The notes under the pieces are model-generated. The model worked only from the letters and a program-made list of their open reading frames with translations. It had not been told where the DNA came from and ran no database searches. A stretch of 50,102 nucleotides of DNA, taken from positions 1-50,102 of the forward strand of contig JAQBTY010000001.1 of assembly GCA_027624735.1 (NCBI GenBank), given 5' to 3'. This document shows positions 35,209-48,635 of this stretch, piece after piece. The first letter of the stretch is position 1. Each line of letters begins with the position of its first letter. Origin of the DNA: Pseudomonadota bacterium. GTDB lineage: Bacteria; Pseudomonadota; Alphaproteobacteria; MPNO01; UBA2964. The position numbers were made by a program, and so were the translations under genes.

Positions 35209-35976
35209 TCAGGCGCCGAATGCCGCGATCATCGCTGCCGGATCGTCGGTAAAAATACCATCGGCGCCGTATTTGAACAGGGTGGCGGCCACGGCCGGAC
35301 GGTTGACCGTATAGGCGAGCAGCCGATAGCCGGCCGCATGGACCTCCTCGATCAGGCTGGGCGTCGCCGTCGATGCCTCGCAATGCAGGTTCGCGCAGCC
35401 CAGATCCGCGAACAAATCCCGCCAGTCCGGGGGCGGGATATCGGCGATCAGTCCCCGGCGCCACTGCGGCGCCGCATCCCGCGCCACCGCCAAGGCTTCG
35501 ATACTGGCCGAAGACAGCACCAGCGTCGCGGGGTCGGACCAGGCCTCGGCCAACACAGCGATGGCGCGGGAAGCGGTCGCTCGGTCCTCACCGGGCGACG
35601 GCTTGATCTCCAGGTTAAGGGCCATATTCCGGCTCAAAATCAGGGCAACGGCGTCAGCCAGGGAGGGAATTCCCTCTCCGGCGAAGGCCTCGCCAAACCA
35701 TGAACCGGCGTCGAGCCGGGTCAGCGCATCAAATGATTGCGCGGCTACCGGACCGGTCCCGTTCGTGGTCCGCGCCAGATCCGTGTCATGGATGATGACC
35801 GGCACGCCATCGGATGACAGCATCACATCCAGTTCCACCGAGCGCGCGCCGAGATCGGCCGCCCGGGCAATGGCGGCAAGTGTATTTTCCGGCGCGACCG
35901 CGCTGGCGCCGCGATGGGCGATGATGCGAAATCTGGACCAATCGTTGGGGCTCGCGGCGGCGTTCTGATTTGTCAT
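35209..35976 (-). CDS. glycerophosphodiester phosphodiesterase family protein
   Basis: IIAHRGASAVAPENTL (HRG..ENT) and ELDVMLSSDGVPVIIHD motifs of the GDPD family. Confidence 0.85.
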   Translation of the reverse strand: MTNQNAAASPNDWSRFRIIAHRGASAVAPENTLAAIARAADLGARSVELDVMLSSDGVPVIIHDTDLARTTNGTGPVAAQSFDALTRLDAGSWFGEAFAGEGIPSLADAVALILSRNMALNLEIKPSPGEDRATASRAIAVLAEAWSDPATLVLSSASIEALAVARDAAPQWRRGLIADIPPPDWRDLFADLGCANLHCEASTATPSLIEEVHAAGYRLLAYTVNRPAVAATLFKYGADGIFTDDPAAMIAAFGA

Positions 35977-36069
35977 GGCTGTATCATAAAGAAATTTGTT
36001 GACGTGTAAAAATCCAGCAACAGAGTCATAGTGCAGATCGTAAACAATGTTTCTGTTATTCTGGCGTCC

Positions 36070-36762
36070 ATGTCACAAGATTACATCGATATATCCATCG
36101 CCCTGCTAAGCGCGCTTGCAGCCGGTAGCCTGATCGGGCTCGAGCGCACCTATCATGGCCGACCGGCCGGCTTCCGAACCCATGCGCTCGTCTGTCTCGC
36201 GTCAGCCCTGCTAATGGTGGTGGCGGTCTATCAGCTTCAGTGGTTCGACCAGGGACCGCAGGAGATTATCCGCATCGAGCCAACCCGCATGGCGCAGGGC
36301 ATCATGACCGGCATTGGGTTTCTCGGCGCCGGTGTGATCTTCAAGGAAAAATTGACCGTGCGCGGTCTGACCACCGCGGCCTCGATATGGATCACCGCAT
36401 CGATCGGGATCCTTTATGGCGTGGGATTTTTCTTTCCGGCGCTGATGGGCACCGTGGCGATCCTTGGCGTGCTGGCTGGTTTCCGCTGGTTCGAACGGCG
36501 TATTCCGTCCCAATTTTTCTTCGAGTTCAGTGTCCGTTACCCCAAAGACAAGGTGCCGACCCTGAAAGAGGTACTAACAATTCTGAAGGATCACGGCTTT
36601 ACGGCTTCGGCGGTCAGCTTCAGGCTTGTTGCCGCAGGCACTCAGTTCCAATACGAAACAGTCATCCGCAGCAACAATCTGCCCGCCGCCCAGAAGCTTT
36701 CGGCCGACCTGTTGAAGCTGCCGGATGTCGAAGAATTCAACGTGCTCCCGATGGGAGACTGA
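36070..36762 (+). CDS. MgtC/SapB family membrane protein
   Basis: ORF from GTG at 36031; the first ATG is at 36070. Signature GLERTYHGRPAGFRTHALVCL. Four to five helices plus a C-terminal ACT-like soluble domain. Confidence 0.85.
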   Translation: MSQDYIDISIALLSALAAGSLIGLERTYHGRPAGFRTHALVCLASALLMVVAVYQLQWFDQGPQEIIRIEPTRMAQGIMTGIGFLGAGVIFKEKLTVRGLTTAASIWITASIGILYGVGFFFPALMGTVAILGVLAGFRWFERRIPSQFFFEFSVRYPKDKVPTLKEVLTILKDHGFTASAVSFRLVAAGTQFQYETVIRSNNLPAAQKLSADLLKLPDVEEFNVLPMGD

Positions 36763-37498
36763 TTCTTTTTAAGTTCGCGCCGGCCCGCTCCCCCCTAACG
36801 TCGGGCAAGGTCTTCATCATGCGGCGCACCGCGTCATCGGCGATAGACGCAAACATCTCGGGATCTTTTGTCATGAGGCCCGCGCGCGCGGCGGAAACGG
36901 GCACGTCAATGATCGAGATCGGCAAACCGCCATCTGACCGACCCGCTGCATGGTGCGCCTGCCATAGAATTTCGCCATCGGCGATCCGCCTCATGGTAAG
37001 GCTGACGGTAAGACCGCGCCGGGCCCACAGCACCATATAATCATCCTGCACCTGGGACAGGTGAATTTCGACCAGCGCGCCACAGCGTGCCTCGCGAGCG
37101 AACACCCGGCGGTCCGATACCGCCATAATATCGAGCCCGAGCCTGGCTTCCATACGGCGCAACCGCGCGCCGCCGATTACCCGGGGCAGACGTATCGCCA
37201 GATGTCGCTCCACGGCATCTTCCACGAGCCGGGAGATCGCGCGCGGCGCGGTGGTCTTGGTGACGATCGCGGCGCAAACCGGCGCCTCGGTATAAAACGC
37301 ATTGGCCAGACGGTAATCAACGCGGCGCTCCAGAAACGAGTCCGATTCGGCCTTTGGCGCACCGGTATGATAAGTGGTTTGCAGGCAGCCGCCGCCGAAG
37401 GCCGGAACCAGCAGGACCACGACCCGCAGGAACCCGTCAGGCCACAGGGGGTTGCCTGCCCCTGCCCTAATCACAGCCGGGACCGCGTGCCCGGCCAC
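36737..37498 (-). CDS. cluster gene 15: lipoprotein, unknown function (LpoB/DUF799/TolB-N-like alpha/beta pattern)
   Basis: GTG start at 37498, so the start is uncertain. Lipobox VVLLVPAFGGGC. Pattern of alternating hydrophobic strands and helices ending in ..GEILWQA. The 3' end overlaps the convergent MgtC gene by 26 nt. Confidence 0.65.
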   Translation of the reverse strand: MAGHAVPAVIRAGAGNPLWPDGFLRVVVLLVPAFGGGCLQTTYHTGAPKAESDSFLERRVDYRLANAFYTEAPVCAAIVTKTTAPRAISRLVEDAVERHLAIRLPRVIGGARLRRMEARLGLDIMAVSDRRVFAREARCGALVEIHLSQVQDDYMVLWARRGLTVSLTMRRIADGEILWQAHHAAGRSDGGLPISIIDVPVSAARAGLMTKDPEMFASIADDAVRRMMKTLPDVRGERAGANLKRISLPSGAR

Positions 37499-38468
37499 GG
37501 GGAGGCGGCAGCGCCACCGACCCGGCCAGGGGCCGGCCGTCGACGGTGAAATCGCCTAGAATGAGCCGCGACCGGTCCCAGCGGTAGGCGGCATGGATCA
37601 GTCTGGCTGTTTTGTATTGCGGCCCCAGTACCGCGCCCAGCCCGCCGAGCAAGGCGGCATCCACGTGACGCGGAAAGACCCGGACCGGCCGCCAGTCGGT
37701 CAGGCGATGGCGATCGGCGATGCTCGCGAAAACGCGCGCTTCCTCGGCAATGGCTTCGCCCTGTGGCGAACGGATAAAGCCGCTAAACCGGTCCATGTCG
37801 ATGGGCCAGGTCTCGCCGACCTTGCCCGCGGCGGCAAAGAGCCTTGCGCCCCCGGCCAGCACCGCCGCCTTGACGCCATAGCATTGTGTGAGCTGGCGAT
37901 AGAGCGCGCGCCGCGCGTCGGCCCGTCGCGGCCAGGCGATTTCGATGACCGGACCCTGGCCATGTTCGAGCAGCCGCAGCAGCGCGCCACCAGTTTTCGT
38001 GTTCCGGTCGCCATCCACCATGGCAGTAGCGAACTCCGCCGATGGCTTTCCGGATGGCTTGATTGCCGGCACCGGTTCAAGGGGCTTTATGCTGAGTTTT
38101 ATCGGCGGGACGTTGCTTGTTACAGGAGCCGACACCGGTTTGGCGGCCGTGATCCGCTTCATCGGCAAGATTGGTGCCGGCTGTATCGGCGTAATTTTTA
38201 CCGCGCTACTGGACGATACGGGGGACGATACAGGCGGTGGCGGCAACTGGATCGCCATTGCTGTGGCACCTGATTGCCTGGCGACCGTCGCGGCCACCCG
38301 TTTTTCCGGTCTGGGCCTATCAATTTGAGCGCTTTGATATAGCGCGACCGACGCCAGTACCAACCCGCCGATCAGCAGCACGGATACGGTCAGAGACAGC
38401 CGGTCGGCCGGGCCTGTCGCGCCTGGATCGACCGGCTGAGGCCGATCACTGGTTGATCGACCGGGCAT
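37467..38468 (-). CDS. cluster gene 14: bitopic membrane protein, TM anchor + Pro-rich rod + ~190-aa C-terminal domain (TonB/TolA-like architecture)
   Basis: ATG at 38468. Single TM helix LSLTVSVLLIGGLVLASVALY. About 100 aa Pro/Ser/Val-rich segment (QLPPPPVSSPVSSSS...PLEPVPAIKPSGKP). The globular C-terminus has no recognised motif. Confidence 0.7.
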   Translation of the reverse strand: MPGRSTSDRPQPVDPGATGPADRLSLTVSVLLIGGLVLASVALYQSAQIDRPRPEKRVAATVARQSGATAMAIQLPPPPVSSPVSSSSAVKITPIQPAPILPMKRITAAKPVSAPVTSNVPPIKLSIKPLEPVPAIKPSGKPSAEFATAMVDGDRNTKTGGALLRLLEHGQGPVIEIAWPRRADARRALYRQLTQCYGVKAAVLAGGARLFAAAGKVGETWPIDMDRFSGFIRSPQGEAIAEEARVFASIADRHRLTDWRPVRVFPRHVDAALLGGLGAVLGPQYKTARLIHAAYRWDRSRLILGDFTVDGRPLAGSVALPPPRGRARGPGCD

Positions 38469-39024
38469 ACAGAAGCTCCATCTCTTCAGCCAGCGATAAC
38501 AGTTCCTTGCGCCGTTCCGCGCCCGTCATCAACCGCGTTCCCTCTTTCAGGGCGGGGGCGGCCGGAGCGGCGTCGAGGCCGTCGAGCACTTCCCTGCGCC
38601 GCCTGGCGACGTCCGGCTCGAGAACCTGGGGAGCCCTCTCGATGATGGTCGGCACGGATTTCCGGCTTGTTGCCGAGCCTGTTTCCGGCAACGCCTGGAG
38701 GTCGCTGGCGAGTTGGCGCGACCGGGATGGTTCGGCCAGCGGCTCCGGTCGTGTCACCGTGGCCGGCGTCACAGGCTGCGTTACCGGCTGCGTTACTGGC
38801 AGGGATGGCGCCGTTACTAGCGTCGGTCCGGTCTTGCGCCCGGCCTTCTCCGTTTCGCGTCCAAACATGGACTGGCCGGCGGTGAGCGCCTTGTTCGCAT
38901 AGGATTTCATGTCGCCGGCGGCATCATGAACCTGCCCGGCGATTTTCTGCACTTCACCACGATCGGCGGTAAACAGGAACACCAACGCGGCGGCGACCGC
39001 AACATTGAATAGCAGAAATTTCAT
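38446..39024 (-). CDS. cluster gene 13: N-terminally anchored protein with Pro/Thr-rich repeat linker
   Basis: ATG at 39024 with GGAAGGTG upstream, 1 nt after the stop of the MotA-like gene. Anchor MKFLLFNVAVAAALVFLF. VTQPVTQPVTPATVTRPEP is encoded by a 12-bp tandem repeat at 38774..38797. Confidence 0.7.
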   Translation of the reverse strand: MKFLLFNVAVAAALVFLFTADRGEVQKIAGQVHDAAGDMKSYANKALTAGQSMFGRETEKAGRKTGPTLVTAPSLPVTQPVTQPVTPATVTRPEPLAEPSRSRQLASDLQALPETGSATSRKSVPTIIERAPQVLEPDVARRRREVLDGLDAAPAAPALKEGTRLMTGAERRKELLSLAEEMELLYARSINQ

Positions 39025-39025
39025 G

Positions 39026-39574
39026 TCATTCACCTTCCATCCGGGCCGCGATCGCGTGTCTTCCGGCCATGGTCCGATCAGGGACAACGCTGCGATTGTG
39101 GGCATGGGTAACGACGATCAGGCCGCGCAGGAGCGCCGATACCGGCAGACCGACAACGGTGGTCATGAAGGCGAGGCTGAAATTCGCCGTCATTTTGCGG
39201 ATCACCGGCTGGATGGTTTCGGGCGTCAGTTCCTGACCGGCCAGCGTGCCGATACCAAGGCTGATACCCAGCAACGTGAAGGTCAGCGCTAACGTGGTCA
39301 CCCCGTTGGCGGCCTGAACACCGGCCTCGAACCAGACCTCGTCGCCGGCGCCCTTCATCTGCAGCATGCGCACCCAGCTATAGAGAGCCAGGAACACCAG
39401 GCTGGTCAGCATCACCACGAAAGACCAGCCCAGCACCTCGCGCGCCCAGTTGGCGATGTCCGTAACGCTATGGGAGGTCATGAGCACCGCCACCGCCAAG
39501 GCGATGGCGAGCCCACCCATCAGGTAGCTTACCGCGCGCGACGAGCTATGGAGGGTACCGAGCAGGGCACGCAT
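39026..39574 (-). CDS. cluster gene 12: short MotA/TolQ/ExbB-family proton-channel-like protein
   Basis: GGGAGG Shine-Dalgarno. Four predicted TM helices. The last two read FTLLGISLGIGTL ... FSLAFMTTVVGLPVSALL. This parallels the ExbB/TolQ/MotA core (IGLFGTVWGI ... ALLATAIGLVAAIPAVV). Confidence 0.65.
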   Translation of the reverse strand: MRALLGTLHSSSRAVSYLMGGLAIALAVAVLMTSHSVTDIANWAREVLGWSFVVMLTSLVFLALYSWVRMLQMKGAGDEVWFEAGVQAANGVTTLALTFTLLGISLGIGTLAGQELTPETIQPVIRKMTANFSLAFMTTVVGLPVSALLRGLIVVTHAHNRSVVPDRTMAGRHAIAARMEGE

Positions 39575-39575
39575 C

Positions 39576-39968
39576 CTACCGCCTCCCTACACGCGCGTTC
39601 ATCAGGCTCTCGGTCGACACGCCAACCTGCTGAAGCCAGTGATCCATCAGCGTGCGATTATGTTCGGTCGACGCATGCACCAGAAACGTCAAATCGTAAT
39701 TCTCATAGGCCGCGCGCACCGCGGGCGTGCTCTTACCAACCAGCGATTTGTCTCGCAGAACCAGACGCTCCAGATCGATCAGGCGGTTACGGGACATTTC
39801 GACCTTGGCCTGGCGCCTTTCCGGGGTGAGTTCGGAGGTGAGCATTGACTCCAGCATCAGGGCCCGCTCGCGTTCCATGTTTTCGAGCGATCCGGCGTGG
39901 CTGGGGACGCTGATCCCAGCCGCCAATACCAGGACAGCGGCGGCGATGAATCGATTGGAAGTTCTCAT
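39576..39968 (-). CDS. cluster gene 11: small exported helical protein, unknown function
   Basis: GGAGGA Shine-Dalgarno. Signal peptide MRTSNRFIAAAVLVLAAGISVPSHAG. 130 aa. The stop lies 1 nt from the next start. Confidence 0.7.
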   Translation of the reverse strand: MRTSNRFIAAAVLVLAAGISVPSHAGSLENMERERALMLESMLTSELTPERRQAKVEMSRNRLIDLERLVLRDKSLVGKSTPAVRAAYENYDLTFLVHASTEHNRTLMDHWLQQVGVSTESLMNARVGRR

Positions 39969-39995
39969 GATCTAATCCTCCGGTTTCGGTGAGCG

Positions 39996-40886
39996 TTATC
40001 GGTTGACAAAAAATTCGACGGCGTCGGTGACGCCCTTGTCCGCCGTCTGGGTTTCGGCCCCGGCGATATCGCCGCCATTGACGGTTTCGGACAAGGCCAT
40101 GGCATCCAGCGCCACCAGCTTGGCCATGTAGCCAAGAATCGACTGTTCCTGATCGATCACGGCGATGGTGGCTTCGTTTTCGCCGATCAGCTGGCGCAGA
40201 AAATCCTCCCGCGACACGGTCGCGCCATCGACTTTCGGCTGTTCGTTCATCGGGTGAGCGTTGACCGCCTGAACCAGCTGTTCGATGGCGGCGACGTTTT
40301 TGGCATATTCCCGGGCATATTTGCTTTCGGTCATCAGCGACGACCGGAACAGCTTTGCATCGACCTTGGCGATGGTATTTTCGAACCGGTCACGCGCCGC
40401 TGTCTGCTTGTCGATCAAGGCGGCACGTTGCGGCGTCAGGCCGGTGTTCTTTTGCTTTATCTTGCCGAGCAAATTTCCATAAACATGGATTTTGGTGCGC
40501 GCATGTTTACGGCGCAGCGACTGGTGATCGGCGACGAGATCCAGATAGGCACGTTTTTCCGCAAGAAACTGGTGCCTGAGTTCGACCCGCAGATCGCCTT
40601 CGGCCTGTTCCATGGCGCCGCGCAAATCTTCCAGCGTCCTGACCTTGAGGCTCATTTTTTCTTCAGTATCTCTGACCGCCGCAGCCAACGACGATTTTGC
40701 GTAATCCTGTTCGATGGCCTTTTTGAGGAAATTCGCCGGCAGCTTGATCAGACGTTCGCTGGCCCGGGGCGACCAATTCGCCTCTTCCGCCGAGGCACGT
40801 GCGTCAGTCATGGGTCCCGCGATCAGGGAAGCCGCGATAACGCAGGCAGACAGGCCGGCTACGGAAATCGGTCTAAATATGTTCAT
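39996..40886 (-). CDS. cluster gene 10: exported coiled-coil-rich protein, unknown function
   Basis: AGGAGA Shine-Dalgarno. Signal peptide MNIFRPISVAGLSACVIAASLIAGPMTDARA. Long charged heptad-like helices (EEKMSLKVRTLEDLRGAMEQAEGDLRVELRHQFLAEKRAYLD). Confidence 0.7.
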   Translation of the reverse strand: MNIFRPISVAGLSACVIAASLIAGPMTDARASAEEANWSPRASERLIKLPANFLKKAIEQDYAKSSLAAAVRDTEEKMSLKVRTLEDLRGAMEQAEGDLRVELRHQFLAEKRAYLDLVADHQSLRRKHARTKIHVYGNLLGKIKQKNTGLTPQRAALIDKQTAARDRFENTIAKVDAKLFRSSLMTESKYAREYAKNVAAIEQLVQAVNAHPMNEQPKVDGATVSREDFLRQLIGENEATIAVIDQEQSILGYMAKLVALDAMALSETVNGGDIAGAETQTADKGVTDAVEFFVNR

Positions 40887-40917
40887 CGCTTGCTCTCCTG
40901 AATGGGGCGCTCCACCC

Positions 40918-41493
40918 TTACTTGTTCTTCCAATAGAGAACGCGCCGCATTTCGCTTTTCAGACCGTCGTTGATGTTCAACGCGGAAAATTCACCGAAAG
41001 TCCAACGCTCGCGCTGACCGAGCAGCGCTTCCATGGTGGTCACGAAGGACGTGCCGTCGGGATAGTAGAAATCATAGTCGGCGAACCGGTTCTTGAATTT
41101 TCCGAAATTATCGCGGGCCTTTTCCACATTTCCGCCCTTGAAGAAATTCTGGACCGAGAGCGCATAGGCCCGCATGCGTTCGTCGCGGGCGATACCGGCT
41201 GCGTCCGGACCAAGGCCGGTTTCACATTTTTCAAGCACTTGGGCGCTCGCCAGGTAGGTGCCGCTTGTCCCGGACGAGCGTGCCTGGCGGTCGAGTTCAA
41301 CACCCTGATCGCGGCAGGCCCTGTAGTCGCGCATAATGGATATCTGTTCGAAACGCGCCTCGCGGTAACCGATCCCTTCCAGAGGGCCGTTGACATCGCT
41401 GGTGCAAGCCGACAAAGCCACCGTGGCCAGCGCGGCAAAAACAGTGCGCCGAAGGGCGGGTAACAATTTAACGGGATTCCGGAATGCCAACAT
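40918..41493 (-). CDS. cluster gene 9: lipoprotein, unknown function
   Basis: Internal ATG at 41493 (MLAFRNPVKLLPALRRTVFAALATVALSAC) gives a signal peptide with an LSAC lipobox. The rest is helical. A 123-nt gap lies upstream. Confidence 0.7.
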   Translation of the reverse strand: MLAFRNPVKLLPALRRTVFAALATVALSACTSDVNGPLEGIGYREARFEQISIMRDYRACRDQGVELDRQARSSGTSGTYLASAQVLEKCETGLGPDAAGIARDERMRAYALSVQNFFKGGNVEKARDNFGKFKNRFADYDFYYPDGTSFVTTMEALLGQRERWTFGEFSALNINDGLKSEMRRVLYWKNK

Positions 41494-41616
41494 GGTTAGG
41501 TCCTTTTCTGATCGTGTCGAGCCCAAGTTCCTTGGGGGTTACGGGGGTTAGGGAAGGATCAGAGGCGTTTTCCCTCTGTATCGCCACAAGTGCAGCCAAA
41601 ATTTGTCCAAAACTGT

Positions 41617-42918
41617 TCATGGCCTGAAATCATTGGTCAGGCGCAAAACCGCCACGCCGTGACCGCGCGCTTCGGCCAGAATACGGTCGACATCCTGCGC
41701 GGATGCAGCGTTCCGCGCCCGCCGCCATACCCCGCCCAGACCGGCAAAATCGGCTACCACACCGGCTTGCACCGACAGAACAACCAGGTCCTGGCGTAGC
41801 GGCGCGATAAGGCGGCTGGGCGGCCTTGCGTCGAGGTCGATCGTCGCCCGGGGCGCGAGGGTCTTTTCGGCATAAATCGTGCGCAGGCGGAAACCGGCGC
41901 CGTTGGCGTTTTCACGGAGCGCCATCACCCAGAGCGTCGCTGCCCTGTCCGACCCGTTGGTCAGGCGATAGTGGAAATCACACAGGCCGGCGACACGCAA
42001 ACCGGCTGCCGGGGCACCTTCGATCACCGGTTGCCTTGTAATCAGGGGCGCAACCCGGTCGAGATGAACCGCAGCGCAGGGCGCGTCCGCGGGCGCCTGG
42101 GTCGCCACGGAAATCGCCGCCAGCGTCGATGCCGGATGGGGCCGCAATGACGCCGGCACAAGACGCACCGCTTGGGCTTTCGCGACACCCAGATCCGGCT
42201 CCAGCCCCAATTTCTGCCACCCGGCAAGAACGGTGATCGCCAACAGCACACATGAGGCGGCATAGGCCAGGTGTCGCGGCATCTTCCTGTGGCCGCCAAT
42301 CATGGACGGCGTGCGAGCCAGCCATTGCCGGATCCGGCGGCGACGTTTCAGACCCAGCACCGCCAAAACATCGCATACTGTCTGTGCCGCGACGATGTGC
42401 AGCCGGTCACAGTCTCCGGCGAAGACATCCTCCAGCGCCTGTGTCGCTTCGATCAAATTGCCGGCGGGAACCGCCATAACGACTCGCGCGCCCGCATCGA
42501 GATGGGCTCTGATCCGGCCTTCCGATTGACGGATCTTGCGATCGACATCTTCCACCGTATCGACCGTCAGATCGCGCGTAACTTCGCCCGTGGCCCAGAC
42601 AATTTGTGGAGTTTTATCATCGGACCGGACCAGCCGGCCTTCTTCGAACAGCGCATGGGCGATGAACAGACCGAGCTGCCAGCTCAGGCCGCTGGCGATG
42701 GGGTTGCTGATATCGACGCGATAGGCGCTATGCCCGAAACAGGCTTCGATGACACCGGTGGGACGGCGCACGAAGGAATCGTAATCCGCGCTAATGGGGA
42801 GCTCGATCGCCTTCCCGTCGTGACAAACGACCGAGCGCACATCGGAATCCTCAGGCGTTATACGCTGAATTTCGGAGGGACCCTCGGTGGTCGCGATATA
42901 GATGGCGGTACGTTTCAT
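41617..42918 (-). CDS. cluster gene 8: bitopic inner-membrane protein with cytoplasmic Lon(S16)-protease-like domain and periplasmic C-terminal domain
   Basis: The ATG overlaps the upstream stop (ATGA). SGLSWQLGLFIAHAL and IVWATGEVTRDLTVDTVEDVDRKIRQSEGRIRAHLDAGARVVMAVPAGN parallel Lon DGPSAGIAM..AL and [24 protein letters not shown].RGG...VLIP..N. An Arg-rich stretch is followed by the TM helix LAYAASCVLLAITVLAGW. Confidence 0.55.
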   Translation of the reverse strand: MKRTAIYIATTEGPSEIQRITPEDSDVRSVVCHDGKAIELPISADYDSFVRRPTGVIEACFGHSAYRVDISNPIASGLSWQLGLFIAHALFEEGRLVRSDDKTPQIVWATGEVTRDLTVDTVEDVDRKIRQSEGRIRAHLDAGARVVMAVPAGNLIEATQALEDVFAGDCDRLHIVAAQTVCDVLAVLGLKRRRRIRQWLARTPSMIGGHRKMPRHLAYAASCVLLAITVLAGWQKLGLEPDLGVAKAQAVRLVPASLRPHPASTLAAISVATQAPADAPCAAVHLDRVAPLITRQPVIEGAPAAGLRVAGLCDFHYRLTNGSDRAATLWVMALRENANGAGFRLRTIYAEKTLAPRATIDLDARPPSRLIAPLRQDLVVLSVQAGVVADFAGLGGVWRRARNAASAQDVDRILAEARGHGVAVLRLTNDFRP

Positions 42919-43463
42919 CGCAGGAACACATCCGTCTTGGGATTGCAGAGCGCGCCGACGAGATCAGACCCGGTATCGAGGAGAAGCTGGATCACCCCGC
43001 CTATGGGCTTCGGCAAGGGAACCTTGCGGCAGCCGTCTCCGTCTCCAATGACAAAAAGCGTGCCCGGCGCCGGGATGGCGGTGTTGGCCAGTTTGATGAT
43101 CAGATAAAGCTGATCCGGGTCGGCCCGTGATTCACGCAGAGAAATTTCGAAACCGGAACCACTCCGCGTGGTCACCGTCCCACTGCTGGCGGCGGCGCGG
43201 CTCACCGGCCGATAGGGCGCGACCCGGGCCAGAAGACAGCGCAAATCCTCCCGCGCGCGCGCGTCGGTCGCAAGCGCTCGGGCCAGATCGGTGCTTGGGG
43301 TTACAGCCGGGTCGGTGGCGTAGCGGTAGATATCGTGAAAACTGACCACAGGCTTCATGGTGGCATGATCGCGGGCAGTCAGGCCGTCGAGCGATTCACG
43401 CGCGATGAAGATCGCCTCGGATAGTGAATGGGCTTCCTGCCAGCTAGCTGGGATTTCACTCAT
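42915..43463 (-). CDS. cluster gene 7: cytoplasmic hypothetical protein (182 aa)
   Basis: ATGA overlaps at both ends (43460-43463 and 42915-42918). No TM helix, signal peptide or recognised motif. Confidence 0.7.
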   Translation of the reverse strand: MSEIPASWQEAHSLSEAIFIARESLDGLTARDHATMKPVVSFHDIYRYATDPAVTPSTDLARALATDARAREDLRCLLARVAPYRPVSRAAASSGTVTTRSGSGFEISLRESRADPDQLYLIIKLANTAIPAPGTLFVIGDGDGCRKVPLPKPIGGVIQLLLDTGSDLVGALCNPKTDVFLR

Positions 43464-45175
43464 CGATGGTCTCCGTACAGGGCGCGAAACTGCGCGAAAA
43501 AAATGTCGTAGTCCGACAAATATTGCTTAGTCCACCCACCCTGACGCCGACCCAGACGCTGCACGCGGGCGGTAAATTTCAGCAAGGAATTTCTGATCAT
43601 GATCAGCGCATCGGACGCCGCGGCGCAGGCATCCGCGCGATCGGAGGCGGCGTAGCCGGCATCGGGCCAATCGGCATCCTTGAAGCCCTTGCGGGTCGTG
43701 CGCTTTGCCGCGCCGCCGGATTCTTCGATCATCGCCGCCAGTTCGGGGCACTTATCCAGCCCGGCGGTCAGCGTGCGCATGAACCGATCATCGGTGTCAG
43801 GCGTCTTCAGACGAACGATCTGGCCGGTACAAACTGTCTCAGCATGGTCATCCCGGTCTTCAAAAACAGACGCGAGCGGCGACAGATCAATGTGCGGCCG
43901 CAGATACAGCAGCACCGTAATGGCTTCTTCACGGCGCGCGGCCACCAGGTGATGGAACGAAGCAAGCAAGGCCGTTTGAAGATTGTCACCTATTTGATCG
44001 ATATAGTCGGCGAAGTCACCATAGGCGCTGGTCACATTGTTGAGTTTATCCAGATACGGCAGCCGGAGGGTATCCTCGCCGCGGCGCAGGGCTTCCGTCA
44101 GCCGCGCCTGCTGCGCCCCCATCACCTGAAGGCGCAGGATTGAGAGCGGCAGGGCAAGGGCGGAACCGCCATATTCGATGAGGGGCGCGATGGCATCGGT
44201 TTCGGTCTGTTTCAGAAACTTGACGCCATTGGCCGGCGCCGCCCGCAACACATCCAGCGGCGCCTGACGTTCGTGGATGGGTCCCAGCGCCGCATCGACC
44301 GCCTCGGGCGTGATGTCAGCGGGATCGATTTCACCGGCGTCCCGGTCGGTGCCGATGGAGCGCGCACGACCAAGGGCGCGTGCCTGTGCCGCCGCCGCCA
44401 GCGCATCGCGCGCCGCCGCCATCAGGCGGAAGACCGATTTAAACGATTTGAAATCGCCCCCCGCCCCGCTGGCGCACCGAGCCTCGTTTGAGGCGGCAAT
44501 CCAGAAGGCCAAGACCGCCTCGTCGTCGATGCTGTGAGGGCCCACCTCGCCATTATCGGAAAGCCGCAAGAACGACATGACCGCGCGGAATTTGCGATGC
44601 GACTGCGCGCTCGGCAAATGCGCCGACAGGTAATGATAGACCCGGCGGGCAAGATCATTGGCCAGCGCATCGACGGCTCCCTTGGTCGCCTGACCCGCCG
44701 GCACGGCGCGAAACTGCGCATCGAGGTCGGCATAGCCGAAGACCGATACGAGGAATTCCATCAGGGCCGACAGAAACGGCATCCGCGTATAGGCGATCCC
44801 GAAAACGCCATCGGCATAGTTCACACGGATACCGGCGCCAAGCCGCTCAACGCCATCAGCGCCGGTCCGATTCTGAAAAATCGACCGAAAGGCGGCGGCG
44901 CGGGCGATGCCGCTGCCCCAGAAAACCAGCTCGTATCCCTGGGCGCGGGCGTTAGCCCCGATCACCCGGTCCGACGCGACGATCAGATGGCACAGCTCAC
45001 GCAGCGGCCCGCCATAGCTCCGGCACACGATCCAGCGGACCAGACGGCGGCACATTGCGGCGGAGAATTTAGGCGCATCGGCGGCGGTAATGTGGGCGAT
45101 CGACCGCAGGATGGCGGCCAGTTCGTCACTGACGTCGCCGCCAGCCATTCCTTCAAGCGGGGGCAGGCTGTCCAT
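43460..45175 (-). CDS. cluster gene 6: large cytoplasmic hypothetical protein (571 aa)
   Basis: AGGTG lies upstream of the ATG at 45175, 1 nt after the stop of the SLT gene. Mostly helical composition. No Walker A, TM helix or signal peptide seen. Confidence 0.7.
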   Translation of the reverse strand: MDSLPPLEGMAGGDVSDELAAILRSIAHITAADAPKFSAAMCRRLVRWIVCRSYGGPLRELCHLIVASDRVIGANARAQGYELVFWGSGIARAAAFRSIFQNRTGADGVERLGAGIRVNYADGVFGIAYTRMPFLSALMEFLVSVFGYADLDAQFRAVPAGQATKGAVDALANDLARRVYHYLSAHLPSAQSHRKFRAVMSFLRLSDNGEVGPHSIDDEAVLAFWIAASNEARCASGAGGDFKSFKSVFRLMAAARDALAAAAQARALGRARSIGTDRDAGEIDPADITPEAVDAALGPIHERQAPLDVLRAAPANGVKFLKQTETDAIAPLIEYGGSALALPLSILRLQVMGAQQARLTEALRRGEDTLRLPYLDKLNNVTSAYGDFADYIDQIGDNLQTALLASFHHLVAARREEAITVLLYLRPHIDLSPLASVFEDRDDHAETVCTGQIVRLKTPDTDDRFMRTLTAGLDKCPELAAMIEESGGAAKRTTRKGFKDADWPDAGYAASDRADACAAASDALIMIRNSLLKFTARVQRLGRRQGGWTKQYLSDYDIFFAQFRALYGDHR

Positions 45176-45176
45176 G

Positions 45177-45725
45177 TCACACCTGCCCGCGAAGAAGTTG
45201 TTTACGATAGTGCCGGCGCAGACGCTTTACCCTGGCCACATAGCGCGCGGTTGCCGGTATGACCCGGGCATTGGCCCAGGCGCCGACCGCGGACCCGCCA
45301 TTGTAATGGGACAGCGCCAGATCGACCCGGCCGCCATAACGGCGGATCAGACGTTTCAGAAAATGCAGCCCGAGGCGGATATTCAGTCTCGGTCGCCAAA
45401 GTAATTTCGGCTCTATCCCGTATTCGCCCCGCGCGGTCATTGGCATGATCTGCATGACGCCGCGGGCGCCTTTGGCGCTCCGCGCCTTGGGATTGAAGTT
45501 GGATTCCACGTGCGCCACGGCAAGCGCGAGGGAGATGGGAACCCGCAACCGCTCCGCTTCCTGGATCACCAGCCGCTTGACCTCATGGCGCGCAACGGGC
45601 CGGTTTTGATTGGCATCGGCGACCGTACCGCACCCGGCAACAAACAGCGCACAGACCAAGACAATTGTCACAGCCGACCCAATACCGCGTCGGCAGGCGG
45701 GCTGGGAATGCACCCTATAACGCAT
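45177..45725 (-). CDS. cluster gene 5: lytic transglycosylase (SLT domain) lipoprotein
   Basis: ATG at 45725 (MRYRVHSQ..) with AGGAGA upstream. Lipobox LFVAGC. SLT catalytic motif AVAHVESNFNP and GARGVMQIMP, then HYNGG. Confidence 0.85.
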   Translation of the reverse strand: MRYRVHSQPACRRGIGSAVTIVLVCALFVAGCGTVADANQNRPVARHEVKRLVIQEAERLRVPISLALAVAHVESNFNPKARSAKGARGVMQIMPMTARGEYGIEPKLLWRPRLNIRLGLHFLKRLIRRYGGRVDLALSHYNGGSAVGAWANARVIPATARYVARVKRLRRHYRKQLLRGQV

Positions 45726-46161
45726 TCTTCTTCTCCTGCAGGGCGCGACGCCAGTTGCCGTCAAGCGTGGTGATAACCAGCCGGCTTGCCGCGATCTTGC
45801 GCCGTGCTTCAATGGCCTGCGCCATGGACAGGTCCGGTGTAACGGCGAGCACTACCCGTTTGGTATCGTCAATGGTGGCCAGGTCGAATGGTTTGAGATC
45901 GCGGCCAAAAAAACGGCTGCCATCGAAGACCACCAGCACGTCTTTGTTGGTCAGCTTGTCGACCGAACCGGTGGCGCGCGCCGGACCGCTATCGGCGATG
46001 ACGGCCGAAATCATCGCCCGGTCCGGCCTTTGAGGTTGCGATTTGGCCGCCGGAACACTGACGCCCATGGACATGGCGGTCAGCACCATGACGCTGAAGA
46101 AACCCATCGCCATCGCCAGCGCGATCTCGGTCATCGCATTTTCTTGTGCACCGCCACTCAT
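45715..46161 (-). CDS. cluster gene 4: ExbD/TolR-like bitopic protein (Glu in TM helix)
   Basis: GGAGGGA Shine-Dalgarno 4 nt upstream. TM helix MTEIALAMAMGFFSVMVLTAM carries an acidic residue near the cytoplasmic end. The periplasmic part VLVVFDGSRFFG...KRVVLAVTPDLSMAQAIEARRKIAASRLVITTL parallels ExbD VYLSVKADNSMFIG...TTIFFRGDKTVDYETLMKVMDTL..AGYLKIGLV. Confidence 0.6.
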   Translation of the reverse strand: MSGGAQENAMTEIALAMAMGFFSVMVLTAMSMGVSVPAAKSQPQRPDRAMISAVIADSGPARATGSVDKLTNKDVLVVFDGSRFFGRDLKPFDLATIDDTKRVVLAVTPDLSMAQAIEARRKIAASRLVITTLDGNWRRALQEKKNAL

Positions 46162-46229
46162 CGTTCCCTCCGCTCGCTGTTCAGGACGTCTTTCCCGGCA
46201 CCCTTGCGTACCCTCACCCCTGCCTATCC

Positions 46230-47066
46230 CTAAGGAAGGACCAGGGCGGTTTTACCTTCCTGGCGCAGGCTGGCGCGCAATTCATGGATCAGCCGGCGGG
46301 TCATGCGGCCCGTCGCGACCTGTCCGAAATCATGCTGATAGGTGCGGATCGCGCGGCGCAGACTTGGGCGCATCAGCCCATCTTGCGGGCCGGGATCATA
46401 GTCAAGGCGCGCCAGCAATTGCTGCGCCAGCAACACCGGGCGCCGGGCGCCGGCGGCCAATTGCGCCGGCGGTCCTTGGCGCCCTTTCCCGGTTACAGCA
46501 ACGCCTGGCTCAGTCAGCCAGATCTGGCGCGGCCGGGTCGCGGCAAAGACAATGCCGTCTTCGACGCTCACCGCCTTGTAGGAAATGGAAACCGCCTGAC
46601 CGTCTTTGCGCAGCGCCCCGACGATCAGGATGTCGACCTTGGCATTGCGCAGCAGATCGACGACCCGACTGTTGGCGGGTGATTCAAGCTCTTCAATGGT
46701 ATCGAGCTCACGGATAATTTCGCGCAGCGTCTCGCGGGCAACGAACCGGTAGGTTCCGCTGCCACGGCGCGTCAGCTCGGCCAGCAGCCGTGTATTGAAT
46801 TCGCTCGCCACCGACGGCGGTATGGTCTTTTCGGTATCCTTGAACGGCGCTACCGCGATACGCGGCTTGCCGTAGCCGCCGATCGCCGGAATATCCGCGA
46901 CACTGGCCGAGCCGATACCGGCCAACAATTCTTCGGCAAAAGACGCAAACTGGCTTTGCGCGGTACCTTGCGCGAAGGCCGGTCCCATAAGACCAATCGA
47001 CAAGGCGGCGGCGGTAAAGCCAGCCCATCGCGACAGAGGTTGGAATATTTTATTGCATGCAATCAT
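46230..47066 (-). CDS. cluster gene 3: exported protein with FlgO/TolB-N-like module and C-terminal peptidoglycan-binding domain (PG_binding_1)
   Basis: ATG at 47066 gives signal peptide ..FTAAALSIGLMGPAFAQG. PRIAVAPFKDTEK...VDILIVGAL pattern. C-terminus LLARLDYDPGPQDGLMRPSLRRAIRTYQHDFGQVATG matches the PG_binding_1 consensus. Confidence 0.75.
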   Translation of the reverse strand: MIACNKIFQPLSRWAGFTAAALSIGLMGPAFAQGTAQSQFASFAEELLAGIGSASVADIPAIGGYGKPRIAVAPFKDTEKTIPPSVASEFNTRLLAELTRRGSGTYRFVARETLREIIRELDTIEELESPANSRVVDLLRNAKVDILIVGALRKDGQAVSISYKAVSVEDGIVFAATRPRQIWLTEPGVAVTGKGRQGPPAQLAAGARRPVLLAQQLLARLDYDPGPQDGLMRPSLRRAIRTYQHDFGQVATGRMTRRLIHELRASLRQEGKTALVLP

Positions 47067-47091
47067 GGTTCGGCCCCCATATTTTTTCGGT

Positions 47092-47910
47092 TTACCAATC
47101 CCGCGAGTCGGTGGCGGGTTGTGCCGTCGGATCTGCTTCAACGACGTAAGTATTTCCGGTTCGCGCGATGCGCGCCGTGAGCTGCAAATGATGCAGCATC
47201 TTCCTGAGCGAGAGCTCGGTCCCGTCTGCCGTACCATCCTGGCTGAGACGATAGAGAACCCCTTCACTGGCCGTGTAGTCGCGCCGGATCCGTGTCACAC
47301 CCGGGAAATTACGGAGATAGAGTTCGATCCGCGGCAACAGGGAGGGATCGATGCGCCGAAACGCCACGCTGATCTGGGTCGGGTCAGCCGTGGCAACGTG
47401 GCGATCGCGGCCAAGCCTTACCAGGCGCCGGTCCACATCCGCCGCGAGGCGCGCCACCAGCGGCGTAACCCGGCGTTGGATTTCCTGGTCGATACAGGAT
47501 TGCGGGCAGTGCGCCGCAAGGCGCCACGACGTACCCGGCCCAGTATCAAACCGCGCCAGAATGCGCTTGGTATCCCCGTCGATCAGAGTCGCTCGCAGCT
47601 CGATTGTGGCGTGAGACGTATAGGCGCCTTGAAGGATCCGGCGTTCGGTGGCTACCCGTAGAATTGTCGCACCGGGTGCGGATGTCCTCACGCCCCCATC
47701 GAGCACCGCATAGCCGCGCCGGCCGAGGGCCGCCATGATGAGACGACGCACCCTTCTGTCGGTTGCGGCGTTTTGCCCGTCGCCGGCCTCCTGGGTAACG
47801 ACCAGCTCTGTCTTGACTAATTGGTCCGCCTGGACGGCCGCAGGGGTGAGAAAGGGCACGGCAAGGGCCAGTAGTGCCCCAGCCGCGGCGACAGGCCTGA
47901 TCATCGCCAT
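47092..47910 (-). CDS. cluster gene 2: exported hypothetical protein
   Basis: ATG at 47910 (MAMIRPVAAAGALLALAVPFLTPAAVQA) with AAGGGGGG upstream. No recognised motif. Confidence 0.65.
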   Translation of the reverse strand: MAMIRPVAAAGALLALAVPFLTPAAVQADQLVKTELVVTQEAGDGQNAATDRRVRRLIMAALGRRGYAVLDGGVRTSAPGATILRVATERRILQGAYTSHATIELRATLIDGDTKRILARFDTGPGTSWRLAAHCPQSCIDQEIQRRVTPLVARLAADVDRRLVRLGRDRHVATADPTQISVAFRRIDPSLLPRIELYLRNFPGVTRIRRDYTASEGVLYRLSQDGTADGTELSLRKMLHHLQLTARIARTGNTYVVEADPTAQPATDSRDW

Positions 47911-47951
47911 GCCCCCCTTCCACTCCCACGGGTAACGTCGCAGTGCCATGC

Positions 47952-48635
47952 TCAACTTGCCTTGCGCCAGGTGCCGTCGCTGGCGCGGCAGGCGGTGCCG
48001 TGCAGCTCTTCCTCATACCCATCGATCCAGCCCCAGGACTTGAAGTCGCGGCAGTACTGCCCGTTTTCACGCTGATAGGTGCGAGTCGGGGTAACAGTGT
48101 AGTCCGCGCCCGTACCGGGGTTGGTCCAGGTCACCCGCTGGCCGGATTTCGCGGTCTCCAGCGCATTGTGCGTGTGAAGCCGGTCGGCCCGGTCCATCGA
48201 ATCGCCGATGCTGCCGCCGATGATGGCGCCGAGGACACCGCCCACAAGGATCGCGGGACCCCGGCCGCGGCCGCGGACGATCGCGTTACCGGTCAGCCCG
48301 CCGAGCACGGCGCCGATGACGCTGCCGGCGACGGCGTTGTTGCCACGGCGGTAGGTCGGCTGGGTCACGACGGTATTGCGATGAACGACCCGCGTGTGAT
48401 GGTGGTGGACGACCCGCGTGCGAACCGGACGGTGTATCCAGCGGCGGTCCCGGCGATAACGGGCACGGGATTCACGGGGCTGCACATAGACAACTTTCTT
48501 AACCACTTTCACGACCCTCGGGCCATCATGGCGCTGATGCCTCTTCCAGCCATCGGCATGGGCCGGCGCCGCGGCCAGCGTAACAAGAGAGATCCCGGCA
48601 AGGCCAAACAGGGTATTTCTGGTGTATGTCAACAT
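47952..48635 (-). CDS. cluster gene 1: glycine-zipper / 17-kDa surface antigen family outer-membrane protein
   Basis: Signal peptide LFGLAGISLVTLAAAPAHA. Glycine zipper AVAGSVIGAVLGGLTGNAIV..GGVLGAIIGGSIG. C-terminal surface-antigen pattern NALE..SGQ.V.W.NP.TG...V.P...Y...G.YCR.F......G.....GTACR..DGTW. Confidence 0.8.
   Translation of the reverse strand: MLTYTRNTLFGLAGISLVTLAAAPAHADGWKRHQRHDGPRVVKVVKKVVYVQPRESRARYRRDRRWIHRPVRTRVVHHHHTRVVHRNTVVTQPTYRRGNNAVAGSVIGAVLGGLTGNAIVRGRGRGPAILVGGVLGAIIGGSIGDSMDRADRLHTHNALETAKSGQRVTWTNPGTGADYTVTPTRTYQRENGQYCRDFKSWGWIDGYEEELHGTACRASDGTWRKAS

Follow-up and report, generated by a model that had tools for sequence, protein, structure and literature searches.

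A block of 15 genes in the genome of a marine alphaproteobacterium represents a genuine cell-envelope system that is widely conserved and has until now escaped annotation. The genes (g1 to g15, numbered from 48635 downwards) fill positions 36737-48635 of the window, the 50,102-nucleotide stretch of DNA analysed here, and all lie on the minus strand. Signal peptides, lipoboxes and transmembrane helices, together with SLT and PG_binding_1 domains, place the system in the envelope, and conserved periplasmic cysteine pairs occur in g8, g9 and g14. We consider it about an even call that the 15 genes form one multi-module system that spans the envelope and is coupled to a proteolytic switch. Such a system would unite membrane parts of Ton/Tol type and an enzyme that cuts the cell wall with a membrane-anchored Lon-like protease and the g6 protein; a literature search found no description of one.

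An earlier note on this DNA had described a 15-ORF minus-strand tiling with tight or overlapping junctions, and the ORF listing bears this out. Single-nucleotide gaps lie at 45175/45177, 39574/39576 and 39024/39026, g7 overlaps both g6 (43460-43463) and g8 (42915-42918) by 4 nt, and the g14 and g15 ORFs overlap by 32 nt. Gaps of 68-90 nt precede g4 and g9, and probable true starts shorten five ORFs (g2, g3, g5, g9 and g13). Shine–Dalgarno-like motifs precede 11 of the 15 starts, much as the note had stated for most genes, and, as it had also stated, no product contains a Walker A motif. Searches of Pfam, NCBIfam and PADLOC recognized only g1, g3 and g5, with Pfam matching the glycine-zipper, PG_binding_1 and SLT motifs reported for them. 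The profile libraries place most members in no characterized machine, in agreement with the note.

Conservation and module structure

Relatives of g4 to g15 occur in the same order, at 30-70% amino-acid identity, in about 25 of 60 species-level genomes, those of marine Rhodospirillales-like alphaproteobacteria. The same families also occur together on low-GC marine metagenome contigs, but as reshuffled modules, in at least four orders and orientations. Module L comprises g2, g4 and g5 (an exported protein, a single-pass protein with an invariant buried Glu and a lipoprotein lytic transglycosylase) and module T comprises g6, g7 and g8. Module E spans g9-g14, with g15 added in some lineages, and contains lipoproteins, two exported helical proteins, a membrane protein of four transmembrane helices and a pair of single-pass proteins whose linkers are long. 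The glycine-zipper protein g1 and the PG-binding protein g3 form a variable outer part.

The homologue census, which could have returned scattered genes, came out syntenic or module-wise, upholding the view of one conserved cluster and confirming that the gene set, kept in order or as modules in many lineages, is more than a chance grouping. The gaps before g4 and g9, and the occurrence of modules apart from each other, might suggest unrelated operons that happen to adjoin on one strand. We give this reading next to no credence, because the same families re-associate in differing orders and orientations across genomes of 32% to 67% GC, contrary to what chance adjacency predicts; co-localization across lineages contradicts it. 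In one clade the T triad stands alone among housekeeping genes, and at two loci (L148 and L149) the E module is accompanied by S8 and C14 peptidases in place of T; the modules are therefore separable, at least physically. Across lineages T is nevertheless found beside E in four different arrangements, evidence in favour of a functional link.

A membrane-tethered Lon-like protease and its neighbours

The T triad ends with g8 (41617..42918), a bitopic protein whose residues 1-190 form a cytoplasmic Lon-like Ser–Lys protease domain, followed by a transmembrane helix at residues ~215-235. In an AF2 model (pLDDT 82), Foldseek matched the protease region to a Lon proteolytic domain (6x1m_C, E 9.4e-6) and to the C-terminal domain of BrxL (E 2.7e-3), and the periplasmic part to PapD/MSP/ASH domains (E 1e-3 to 1e-2), indicating an Ig-like domain of PapD/MSP type with a conserved Cys pair. 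When the g8 profile was compared with PDB sequences, Lon proteases accounted for 19 of the 20 matches at E up to 10, the remaining one being a myosin light chain (E 1.5); the best match was LonC (E 0.002), with K128 aligned to LonC K625. Conservation follows the same features: S79 in 72 of 72 sequences, K128 in 72 of 73, C281 in 67 of 73 and C313 in 71 of 73. Model and alignments together show g8 as a membrane-tethered Lon-like protease domain with a conserved Ser–Lys pair and a periplasmic Ig-like domain, and structure comparison thus confirms the Lon-like domain proposed earlier for this 433-amino-acid protein.

The earlier note had called the cytoplasmic part of the cluster unrecognizable, a description that no longer fits g8, nor g7 if its proposed role holds, and that still fits g6. 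The 182-amino-acid cytoplasmic protein g7 (42915..43463) has no family or PDB match; it carries an invariant A90-A91-A92 motif, and A92, R100 and Q159 are kept in 68 of 68 sequences. The Lon-like protease CalpL cleaves CalpT within ‘LAAA’ (10.1101/2024.05.08.593097), a site that the AAA motif of g7 resembles, and from this analogy, together with the 4-nt overlaps of g7 with g6 and g8, we propose that g7 may serve the g8 protease as substrate or adaptor. The triad begins with g6 (43460..45175), which encodes a mostly helical cytoplasmic protein of 571 amino acids that matched nothing in any family library tried. All 69 of its database clusters are named hypothetical, and some 40 of its residues reach 85% conservation or more across 70 sequences. 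Its AF2 model is confident (pLDDT 85.7, pTM 0.77) and found no structural match with Foldseek (best E 0.34 in PDB and 0.30 in BFVD, TM <0.15); the predicted fold is unlike any solved structure in the PDB.

Components of a proposed periplasmic scaffold

The E module opens with g9 (40918..41526, start probably 41493), a lipoprotein (lipobox LSAC) of helical, TPR-like character that has an invariant Cys pair (C41, C71 and C101 in 52 of 52 sequences). It is followed by g10 (39996..40886), an exported, all-helical, coiled-coil-type protein of 296 amino acids kept in all E-module loci; neither has a family or PDB match. The most conserved small component is g11 (39576..39968), an exported helical protein of 130 amino acids in which N30, E32, R33, R35, D65, E67, F95, E102 and W111 are invariant in 80 of 80 sequences, and which has no family match.

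Two anchored proteins follow the membrane protein g12. The product of g13 (38446..39024, within the ORF 38446-39105) has a single-pass anchor and then a linker that varies, being Pro-rich in this genome and Gln-rich or coiled-coil in lineages of low GC content; its C-terminal helix is conserved in the alignment as RRRELxxLAEEMELLY, and the alignment shows no conserved acidic transmembrane residue. A 1-nt gap separates it from g12, and at low-GC loci the place between g12 and g14 is likewise taken by its counterparts. In g14 (37467..38468), a single-pass anchor, an invariant LPPPP and a Pro-rich linker lead to a periplasmic domain of ~190 amino acids with a conserved Cys pair; L75, P76, P180, C196, S229, R233, D270, Y295 and C332 are invariant, and searches gave no Pfam match and no significant PDB match. 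The topology of g14 is TonB/TolA-like, yet TonB_C and TolA domains are both absent from it. The TolA/TonB-like rods of the earlier note are thus real as Pro-rich anchored proteins, but g13 and g14 both lack the SHLS/His motif and the TonB_C and TolA domains; its lipoproteins, Lon-like bitopic protein and PG-binding and PG-cleaving parts are all real.

Within the L module, g2 (47092..47955, start probably 47910, giving ~272 amino acids) is predicted to be exported, as its N-terminus resembles a signal peptide; it has no known domain, matched nothing in Pfam, NCBIfam or PADLOC, and by family HMM adjoins g4-g5 in every arrangement type, at times in two copies. The lytic transglycosylase g5 (45177..45812, start probably 45725, 182 amino acids) is an SLT-family lipoprotein (lipobox VAGC; Pfam E 1.9e-22, 79 bits against a cut-off of 21), and its translation shows the catalytic ES motif ‘HVESNFNP’.

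Tol-Pal and TonB2 clusters have a similar list of parts: a small membrane protein resembling ExbB, Pro-rich proteins with a membrane anchor, a coiled-coil protein in the periplasm, a lipoprotein of TPR-like type and a protein that binds PG. The locus could accordingly be a divergent, purely structural Tol-Pal/Ton paralogue for outer-membrane tethering, division-site remodelling or uptake; the T triad, which can stand alone and without which E can occur, would then be a neighbouring protease operon for quality control rather than a signalling switch. We regard this as unlikely: signatures of TolB, Pal/OmpA, TonB_C, TolA and TonB-dependent receptors are all absent, the recurrent pairing of T with E speaks for a functional link, and g8 keeps its Ser–Lys pair and periplasmic domain even in lineages in which T and E are rearranged.

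A candidate motor

The 182-amino-acid inner-membrane protein g12 (39026..39574) has four transmembrane helices and the core motifs ATLALT.TLLGISLGIG and FS.AFMTTVVGLP. ZorA and MotA_ExbB are its most recurrent families in three independent libraries: PADLOC ZorA models match 17 of 25 members (best E 3e-4, below curated thresholds), NCBIfam ZorA_2 matches 10 of 25 (below its curated threshold) and Pfam MotA_ExbB leads among 73 diverse members (6 of 73, best E 0.022, sub-threshold). No motor-family profile reaches its curated threshold, hhalign comparisons with Escherichia coli TolQ and ExbB were not significant, and the family, which has 186 representatives when clustered at 50% identity, stays separate from MotA/ExbB. 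The MotA/ExbB-like assignment made earlier is thus favoured by recurrence and weakened by sub-threshold scores, and g12 is marginally, though consistently, indicated as a remote MotA/ExbB/ZorA-like candidate channel subunit.

Its supposed partner, g4 (45715..46161), is a 148-amino-acid single-pass inner-membrane protein with a small periplasmic domain and an invariant Glu in its helix (NAMTEIALALAM.FF; E12 in 45 of 45 sequences). No profile test supports its earlier designation as ExbD/TolR-like: ExbD matched none of 32 members, and hhalign against TolR and ExbD was not significant. The genes for the two subunits of known stators adjoin each other, whereas g4 is never adjacent to g12, whose neighbour is g13; g4 instead always lies directly upstream of g5, a pair kept in all arrangements. 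The sub-threshold g12 matches, the missing ExbD match and this separation weaken the case for the proton-motive-force-energized stator pair that had been proposed. A drive by proton motive force is still plausible, because g12 is marginally MotA/ExbB/ZorA-like and g4, without an ExbD signal, has an invariant membrane Glu.

That ZorA models are the closest profile matches of g12 raises the question of a Zorya-type, envelope-triggered conflict or anti-phage system, in which a ZorA-like membrane unit would sense envelope perturbation by phage and activate cytoplasmic or periplasmic protease effectors (the Lon-like g8 here, caspase-like C14 and subtilisin-like S8 peptidases at other loci). Protease modules are indeed swapped between loci (T here; S8, C14 and DUF4384 in L148 and L149, adjoining transposases and a PIN/Phd toxin–antitoxin pair), and the Lon-like domain is shared with the defence proteins BrxL and CalpL. 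We nevertheless judge this quite unlikely. A PADLOC scan of ten components (g2-g4 and g6-g12) gave weak ZorA matches only, g12 lacks the ZorA tail, and the cluster has no ZorB-type PG-binding partner, nuclease, helicase or NTPase. Members of a clade share the same flanks, the cluster lies among housekeeping genes, a search of 2.9 million viral contigs returned no relatives, and the at least seven structural periplasmic and lipoprotein components are unlike known defence systems.

Proposed mechanism

In the envelope-spanning system that we favour, the E and L modules would build an inner-membrane-anchored scaffold across the periplasm, with g5 locally opening the peptidoglycan for its assembly. 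Oligomers of g12, possibly with the protonatable Glu of g4, could form a minimal ion-driven unit of Ton/Tol/Zorya type working on g13 and g14, the two extended proteins. Through its periplasmic domain, g8 would sense the state of the apparatus and switch on its cytoplasmic protease, which would cleave g7 at its invariant AAA motif and so release or activate g6 as the cytoplasmic output protein. For the cell, the system might serve envelope integrity, a process at the surface or the signalling of stress.

Variable outer components

The last gene, g15 (36737..37498), encodes a lipoprotein (..FGGGC) found in higher-GC lineages only, its family being conserved in 19 loci and in L148, L149 and L143. 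In a pooled scan the GNA1162-like family PF05643 was the most recurrent Pfam family (three members, best E 0.0065); we infer that these three are g15 proteins, and g15 is probably GNA1162/DUF799-like. The exported protein g3 (46230..47267, start probably 47066) combines PG_binding_1 (E 1.2e-10) with a CsgG-like N-terminal domain. Its weak CsgG match just exceeds the Pfam cut-off (21.9 bits against 20.8).

Machines that pass through the cell wall, specialized secretion systems among them, typically have a dedicated SLT enzyme. With one present here beside CsgG-like and probably GNA1162-like lipoproteins, a secretion or surface-assembly apparatus comes to mind; we hold it to be very unlikely, since ATPase, secretin, usher, pilin and any obvious cargo gene are absent, the CsgG match is confined to positions 8-97 of a 210-position profile, and g1 and g3 are the least conserved members of the cluster. 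The g3 HMM matches DUF4384 proteins in L003, L148 and L149, and its counterparts elsewhere are DUF4384 proteins that adjoin caspase-like peptidases; g3 is a part of the variable periphery. So is g1 (47952..48635), an exported 227-amino-acid protein of the glycine-zipper or 17-kDa-antigen type (17kDa_Anti_2, E 1e-8; Gly-zipper_Omp, E 5.5e-6), which is present in the closest relatives only (L004-L006, L008, L012 and L066).

Conservation and borders of the cluster

The cluster is real and conserved. Fifteen ORFs (g1 to g15 in transcription order), all on the minus strand, tile positions 36737–48635, from g1 at 47952–48635 to g15 at 36737–37498. Their tight junctions are as described in the earlier note, which read the region from sequence alone as a candidate trans-envelope system energized by the proton motive force (PMF). 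Gaps of 1 nt occur at 45175/45177, 39574/39576 and 39024/39026, g6/g7 and g7/g8 overlap by 4 nt, g14/g15 overlap by 32 nt, and the widest gaps are those before g4 (g3/g4, 68 nt) and g9 (g8/g9, 90 nt). Inspection of start codons suggests shorter products for g2, g3, g5, g9 and g13 (starts at 47910, 47066, 45725, 41493 and 39024, respectively), and a Shine–Dalgarno-like motif lies ahead of 11 of the 15 starts. No Walker A motif occurs in any of the 15 products, again as first read. Transcription units are left undefined by a promoter and terminator scan, which gave no signal above shuffled controls, and we found no tRNA or Rfam elements within the window. The window spans an entire contig (50,102 bp) of an NCBI metagenome-assembled ‘Proteobacteria bacterium’, and the g8 product is identical to the protein with locus tag O3C34_00225.

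The borders are clear on both sides. Downstream, a convergent plus-strand MgtC-family gene (36031–36762) shares 26 nt with the 3′ end of g15 and is followed by genes for a GDPD phosphodiesterase (35209–35976) and the large subunit of a molybdopterin hydroxylase (32778–35129); the hydroxylase lies on the opposite side of the cluster in three related loci (L004, L005 and L008). Directly upstream of g1, a PepSY-domain gene and then an OmpR-type response regulator gene diverge on the plus strand (48770–50039), with no kinase gene past them before the end of the contig. In L004, L005, L008 and a fourth locus, L066, the cluster is flanked by this pair too, with a gene for a PhoQ-like histidine kinase after it, and the pair may therefore regulate the cluster.

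Distribution and modular rearrangement

A search with g6 returned 69 protein clusters, all annotated as ‘hypothetical’ and all from marine Rhodospirillales-like alphaproteobacteria, and 60 loci were found among 185,579 species genomes. Using tblastn and iterated family HMMs, we found the g6-g7-g8 triad in around 54 of 63 loci and the complete g4-to-g15 order, at 30–70% identity, in around 25 loci, including those of the cultured alpha proteobacterium BAL199 and Thalassobaculum fulvum KCTC 42651. The system is also widespread in marine metagenomes, in which it occurs on hundreds of contigs; a scan seeded by divergent g12 proteins found 80 metagenomic loci that range in GC content from 32% to 67%. 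In the low-GC loci, the same families co-localize in at least four arrangements, which define three modules: L (g2-g4-g5), T (g6-g7-g8) and E (g9-g14, with g15 in some lineages). These arrangements are E with an inverted T-L, L...E-T, E-L-T and T-E. Because the families re-associate after shuffling, the arrangements are strong evidence for a functional link. In this neighbourhood census, homologues are syntenic across lineages, kept in order or as re-associating modules, in keeping with the first reading of the genes as a single cluster, and g1 and g3 form its variable periphery.

A plasmid or phage element was considered and rejected: megablast of plasmids gave no nucleotide match to the cluster, and scans of viral contigs detected no relatives of g12 or g6.

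We found no published description of the system in the libraries and literature searched, and it is unannotated even though cultured organisms and many marine metagenomes carry it. A recent survey pointed out that further envelope systems driven by 5:2 motors remain to be found, and the present system is absent from those that it reported (PMC12204202).

Products recognized by family libraries

Pfam, with which we scanned all 15 window proteins, recognizes only three: g1 (17-kDa antigen/glycine zipper), g3 (PG_binding_1, E = 1e-10, with a CsgG match marginally over the cut-off) and g5 (SLT, E = 2e-22; PF01464, 79.4 bits against a cut-off of 21.3). The glycine zipper, PG_binding_1 and SLT calls made from sequence alone are therefore borne out. 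The g5 product is a lipoprotein SLT enzyme, the translation of which carries the catalytic Glu-Ser motif ‘VESNFNP’. Dedicated lytic transglycosylases are typical companions of wall-crossing machines (T3SS, T4SS and flagellar), and a secretion or assembly apparatus is one rival reading of the cluster; membership in T1–T9SS was rejected.

Beyond these three products, scans of the window proteins with Pfam, and of ten of them (g2–g4 and g6–g12) with PADLOC and NCBIfam, gave only weak ZorA matches for g12. Not even a faint Pfam family is listed for g2, g4 or g6–g15 in the precomputed annotation of two complete homologous loci (L066 and L067), and profile searches against PDB sequences returned nothing for g6, g7, g9, g10, g12 (two alignments) or g14. 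In total, 10–12 conserved proteins of the system went unmatched in Pfam, NCBIfam, PADLOC and the PDB. Among the envelope products, g9 is a lipoprotein with TPR-like sequence and an invariant Cys pair, g10 and g11 are exported helical proteins (nine residues of g11 are invariant in 80 of 80 sequences) and g15 is a lipoprotein that, judging from weak matches, is probably GNA1162-like. The last of these and the CsgG-family match at the N terminus of g3 recall CsgG-like and GNA1162 (DUF799)-like lipoprotein clusters, and proteins of both kinds are envelope lipoproteins or exported. However, the matches are partial or weak, a DUF4810 partner was not detected, and the cluster here is much larger, with g3 and g15 at its periphery.

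A Lon-like protease domain and its proposed partners

In the AF2 model of g8 (pLDDT 82), residues 1–190 match the Lon proteolytic domain 6x1m_C (Foldseek E = 9.4e-6, probability 1.0, target-normalized TM 0.53), and the N-terminal domain also matches the C-terminal domain of BrxL (Foldseek E = 2.7e-3). According to the model and Foldseek, the protease domain is followed by one transmembrane (TM) helix and then by a periplasmic Ig-like domain of the PapD/MSP type. A g8 profile searched against PDB sequences retrieved Lon proteases as 19 of 20 matches at E up to 10 (best, LonC, E = 0.002), with K128 of g8 aligned to K625 of LonC in a TG.V...K motif. The Lon motif follows the pattern GxS...TGE...K; we take K625 to be the catalytic Lys of LonC and S79 of g8 to be equivalent to the catalytic Ser of Lon. 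In an alignment of 73 sequences from all lineages, S79 is present in 72 of 72 and K128 in 72 of 73, and G77, W80, Q81, H88, G111 and a periplasmic Cys pair are also conserved. Residues 1–190 are thus predicted to adopt the Lon proteolytic-domain fold, with S79 and K128 as the putative Ser-Lys dyad of family S16. Having neither a Walker A motif nor an AAA domain, and so no AAA+ module, g8 resembles the stand-alone Lon-like domain of CalpL rather than a canonical Lon protease. The modelled fold, the alignment with LonC and the conserved dyad together indicate that g8 is most likely an active Ser-Lys protease without an ATPase.

The neighbouring g7 carries an invariant AAA motif (A92 in 68 of 68 sequences), as well as invariant R100 and Q159. 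CalpL, a Lon-like protease of type III CRISPR systems, cuts its partner CalpT within ‘LAAA’ (10.1101/2024.05.08.593097), and by analogy we infer that g7 is the substrate cut by g8. The likeness to CalpL-CalpT-CalpS extends to the three-gene layout, and a Ser-Lys protease domain of Lon fold that has no working AAA+ partner is a feature common to g8, CalpL, LonC and the C-terminal domain of BrxL. By contrast, the putative sensor of g8 is an Ig-like domain in the periplasm, beyond a TM helix, whereas CalpL senses through a SAVED domain in the cytoplasm. A switch of the CalpL type also involves a sigma factor sequestered by the cleaved partner, but g6 and g7 cannot be recognized as sigma or anti-sigma factors, and there is no CRISPR context here. 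With Pfam, neither a SAVED domain nor a signature of sigma or anti-sigma factors was detected in g6–g8. The g8-g7 pair offers a cleavage hypothesis that is open to immediate test.

The confident AF2 model of g6 (pLDDT 85.7, pTM 0.77) resembles no structure in the PDB or BFVD according to Foldseek (best E = 0.3, TM below 0.15). The cytoplasmic module, called unrecognizable in the earlier note, therefore deserves that description for g6 but not for g8, in which a Lon-like domain is recognized.

Evidence for and against an ion-driven unit

The g12 product (182 amino acids) has four TM helices, of which the two C-terminal ones are very conserved, with T94, T98, T100 and S105 invariant in TM3 and T138/T139, G142 and P144 in TM4. 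The g12 of the window has no Pfam match at E up to 0.1 and matches PADLOC ZorA models at E = 0.002–0.05. Across the family, the most recurrent matches are to PADLOC ZorA (17 of 25), NCBIfam ZorA_2 (10 of 25) and Pfam MotA_ExbB (6 of 73; best E = 0.022), all far under curated thresholds. When the g12 alignment is compared by hhalign with single E. coli TolQ and ExbB sequences, the g12 segment FS.AFMTTVVGLP falls on ‘EALIATAIGL’ of TolQ/ExbB with a probability of about 0.1%, which is not significant. No TolQ or ExbB homologue occurs in 67 loci. A HMMER search of 1.84 billion proteins with a g12 profile gave only 186 matches, all small proteins of the g12 family, which thus does not merge with MotA/ExbB. 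What stands of the original MotA/ExbB-like call is the recurrence of weak matches; neither a curated threshold nor significance in hhalign is reached.

Two g12-family proteins, P0266 (303 amino acids) and P0277 (326 amino acids), extend at the C terminus into long low-complexity tails that are rich in Pro or Lys and add no TM helix. These may be real fusions that give a ZorA-like architecture or may be gene-calling read-through.

A conserved protonatable acidic residue in a single N-terminal TM helix, as in ExbD/TolR, is found in g4, in which E12 is present in 45 of 45 sequences within ‘NAMTEIALALAM.FF’. This residue is Glu, not Asp, and g4 always adjoins the transglycosylase gene g5 and never g12, which belongs to another module. 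None of 32 members matches ExbD (PF02472) at E up to 1, and hhalign against single E. coli TolR and ExbD sequences gave a probability of about 0.15%, which is not significant; the ExbD/TolR-like assignment of g4 is not supported by these profile tests. The gene directly after g12 in all lineages is g13, and this has no conserved acidic TM residue, as N/D7 is restricted to high-GC lineages. We rejected g13 as an Asp-bearing B subunit given that its polar TM residue is not kept in low-GC lineages, and g12 accordingly has no adjacent subunit of this kind.

Both g13 (TM anchor, linker and conserved helix) and g14 (TM anchor, LPPPP, Pro-rich linker and a Cys-pair domain of around 190 amino acids) have the anchor and extended linker of TonB/TolA transducers. 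Their TM helices contain no conserved His or Ser pattern of the SHLS/His type, there is no Pfam match, even a faint one, to TonB_C or TolA (window, L066 and L067), and g14 has no match among PDB sequences. The TonB/TolA-like rods proposed earlier are thus upheld in topology but not in motif or domain.

A purely structural Tol/Ton paralogue is a second rival reading. It would account for a small polytopic inner-membrane protein (g12) with Gly/Thr/Ser-rich C-terminal helices set, by an alignment that is not significant, on the TolQ/ExbB core, for the long Pro-rich periplasmic linkers of single-pass g13 and g14, for a PG-binding protein, and for a periplasmic coiled coil and TPR-like lipoprotein that recall CpoB of Tol-Pal. 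However, no profile reaches threshold in the cluster, g12 lacks a cytoplasmic domain, and the sole TM helix with a conserved acidic residue is that of g4, far from g12 and paired with a lytic transglycosylase. Also missing are TolB and a Pal/OmpA domain, and the cytoplasmic or bitopic g6–g8 have no Ton or Tol counterpart. Membership in the canonical Tol-Pal or Ton systems was rejected.

The third rival, a Zorya-like conflict system, draws on the ZorA models, which are the best, although weak, matches of g12, and on the coupling of an envelope-embedded unit to cytoplasmic proteins. Against this, g12 lacks the long cytoplasmic tail of ZorA, and the cluster has no ZorB PG-binding domain and no ZorC, ZorD or ZorE, contains many extra periplasmic components and sits in a stable chromosomal context. 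PADLOC found none of ZorB–ZorG among the ten products scanned, and we rejected Zorya membership.

Taken together, g12, g4, g13 and g14 keep an ion-driven (PMF) unit in the cluster at the level of a reasonable hypothesis. The reading with most support is a system that spans the envelope and is coupled to a Lon-like proteolytic switch tethered to the membrane; this system may be driven by the PMF. We can propose only tentatively, and with more doubt than belief, that marine alphaproteobacteria have here a kind of trans-envelope machine not known before, in which a divergent ion-driven unit, together with around eight new families of periplasmic proteins or lipoproteins, connects to a new transmembrane signalling route of g8, g7 and an effector. 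In such a machine, g12 and the Glu-bearing g4 would form a minimal, highly divergent ion-driven unit, and the periplasm-sensing, membrane-tethered g8 would cut its AAA-motif partner to release an effector that has no structural match. If true, this would add another entry to the short list of envelope machines that follow the Ton/Tol/Mot/Zorya logic, a new route for signals across the inner membrane, by way of a Lon-like Ser-Lys protease whose sensor domain is periplasmic, and, in g6, a protein that resembles no structure in the PDB or BFVD. A possible use of ion flow by the system can be probed directly at the invariant Glu of g4.

Partial loci and accessory genes

In a clade of Rhodospirillales MAGs, the triad g6-g7-g8 occurs alone (L033, L035, L038, L041, L044, L045, L048, L049, L051, L054, L056 and L058), with a CoA-transferase/thioesterase pair and SDR and cyclopropane-fatty-acid-synthase genes as conserved flanks. 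In a Terasakiella sp. locus without an adjoining E module (L001, CP182348.1), a gene for a PAS-GGDEF diguanylate cyclase (8940–9893) splits SLT-containing upstream genes from g6-g7-g8; OZ245847.1 is another example of a triad-only genome. Triad relatives labelled as lying outside the Alphaproteobacteria are found in Ca. Magnetaquiglobus (Magnetococcia; L057) and in a bin named Ca. Thiodiazotropha taylori (L063); the latter, gammaproteobacterial case may be a binning error.

Two loci (L148, 8117–19350; L149, 8114–18089) contain the E module g9-g15, with an additional exported protein of 306–313 amino acids between g14 and g15, and then genes for a subtilisin-like peptidase (S8), a caspase-like peptidase (C14) and a DUF4384 protein that resembles g3; neither a T nor an L module lies within 10 kb. 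A divergent OmpA-domain gene is located upstream in these loci, with transposases and a PIN/Phd toxin–antitoxin pair close by. In L067 (Thalassobaculum sp., 4558–8592), a Peptidase_C14 (caspase-like) gene is followed by g3-like and g2-like genes upstream of g4-g5, an arrangement that points to caspase-like peptidases as accessories that recur with the system.
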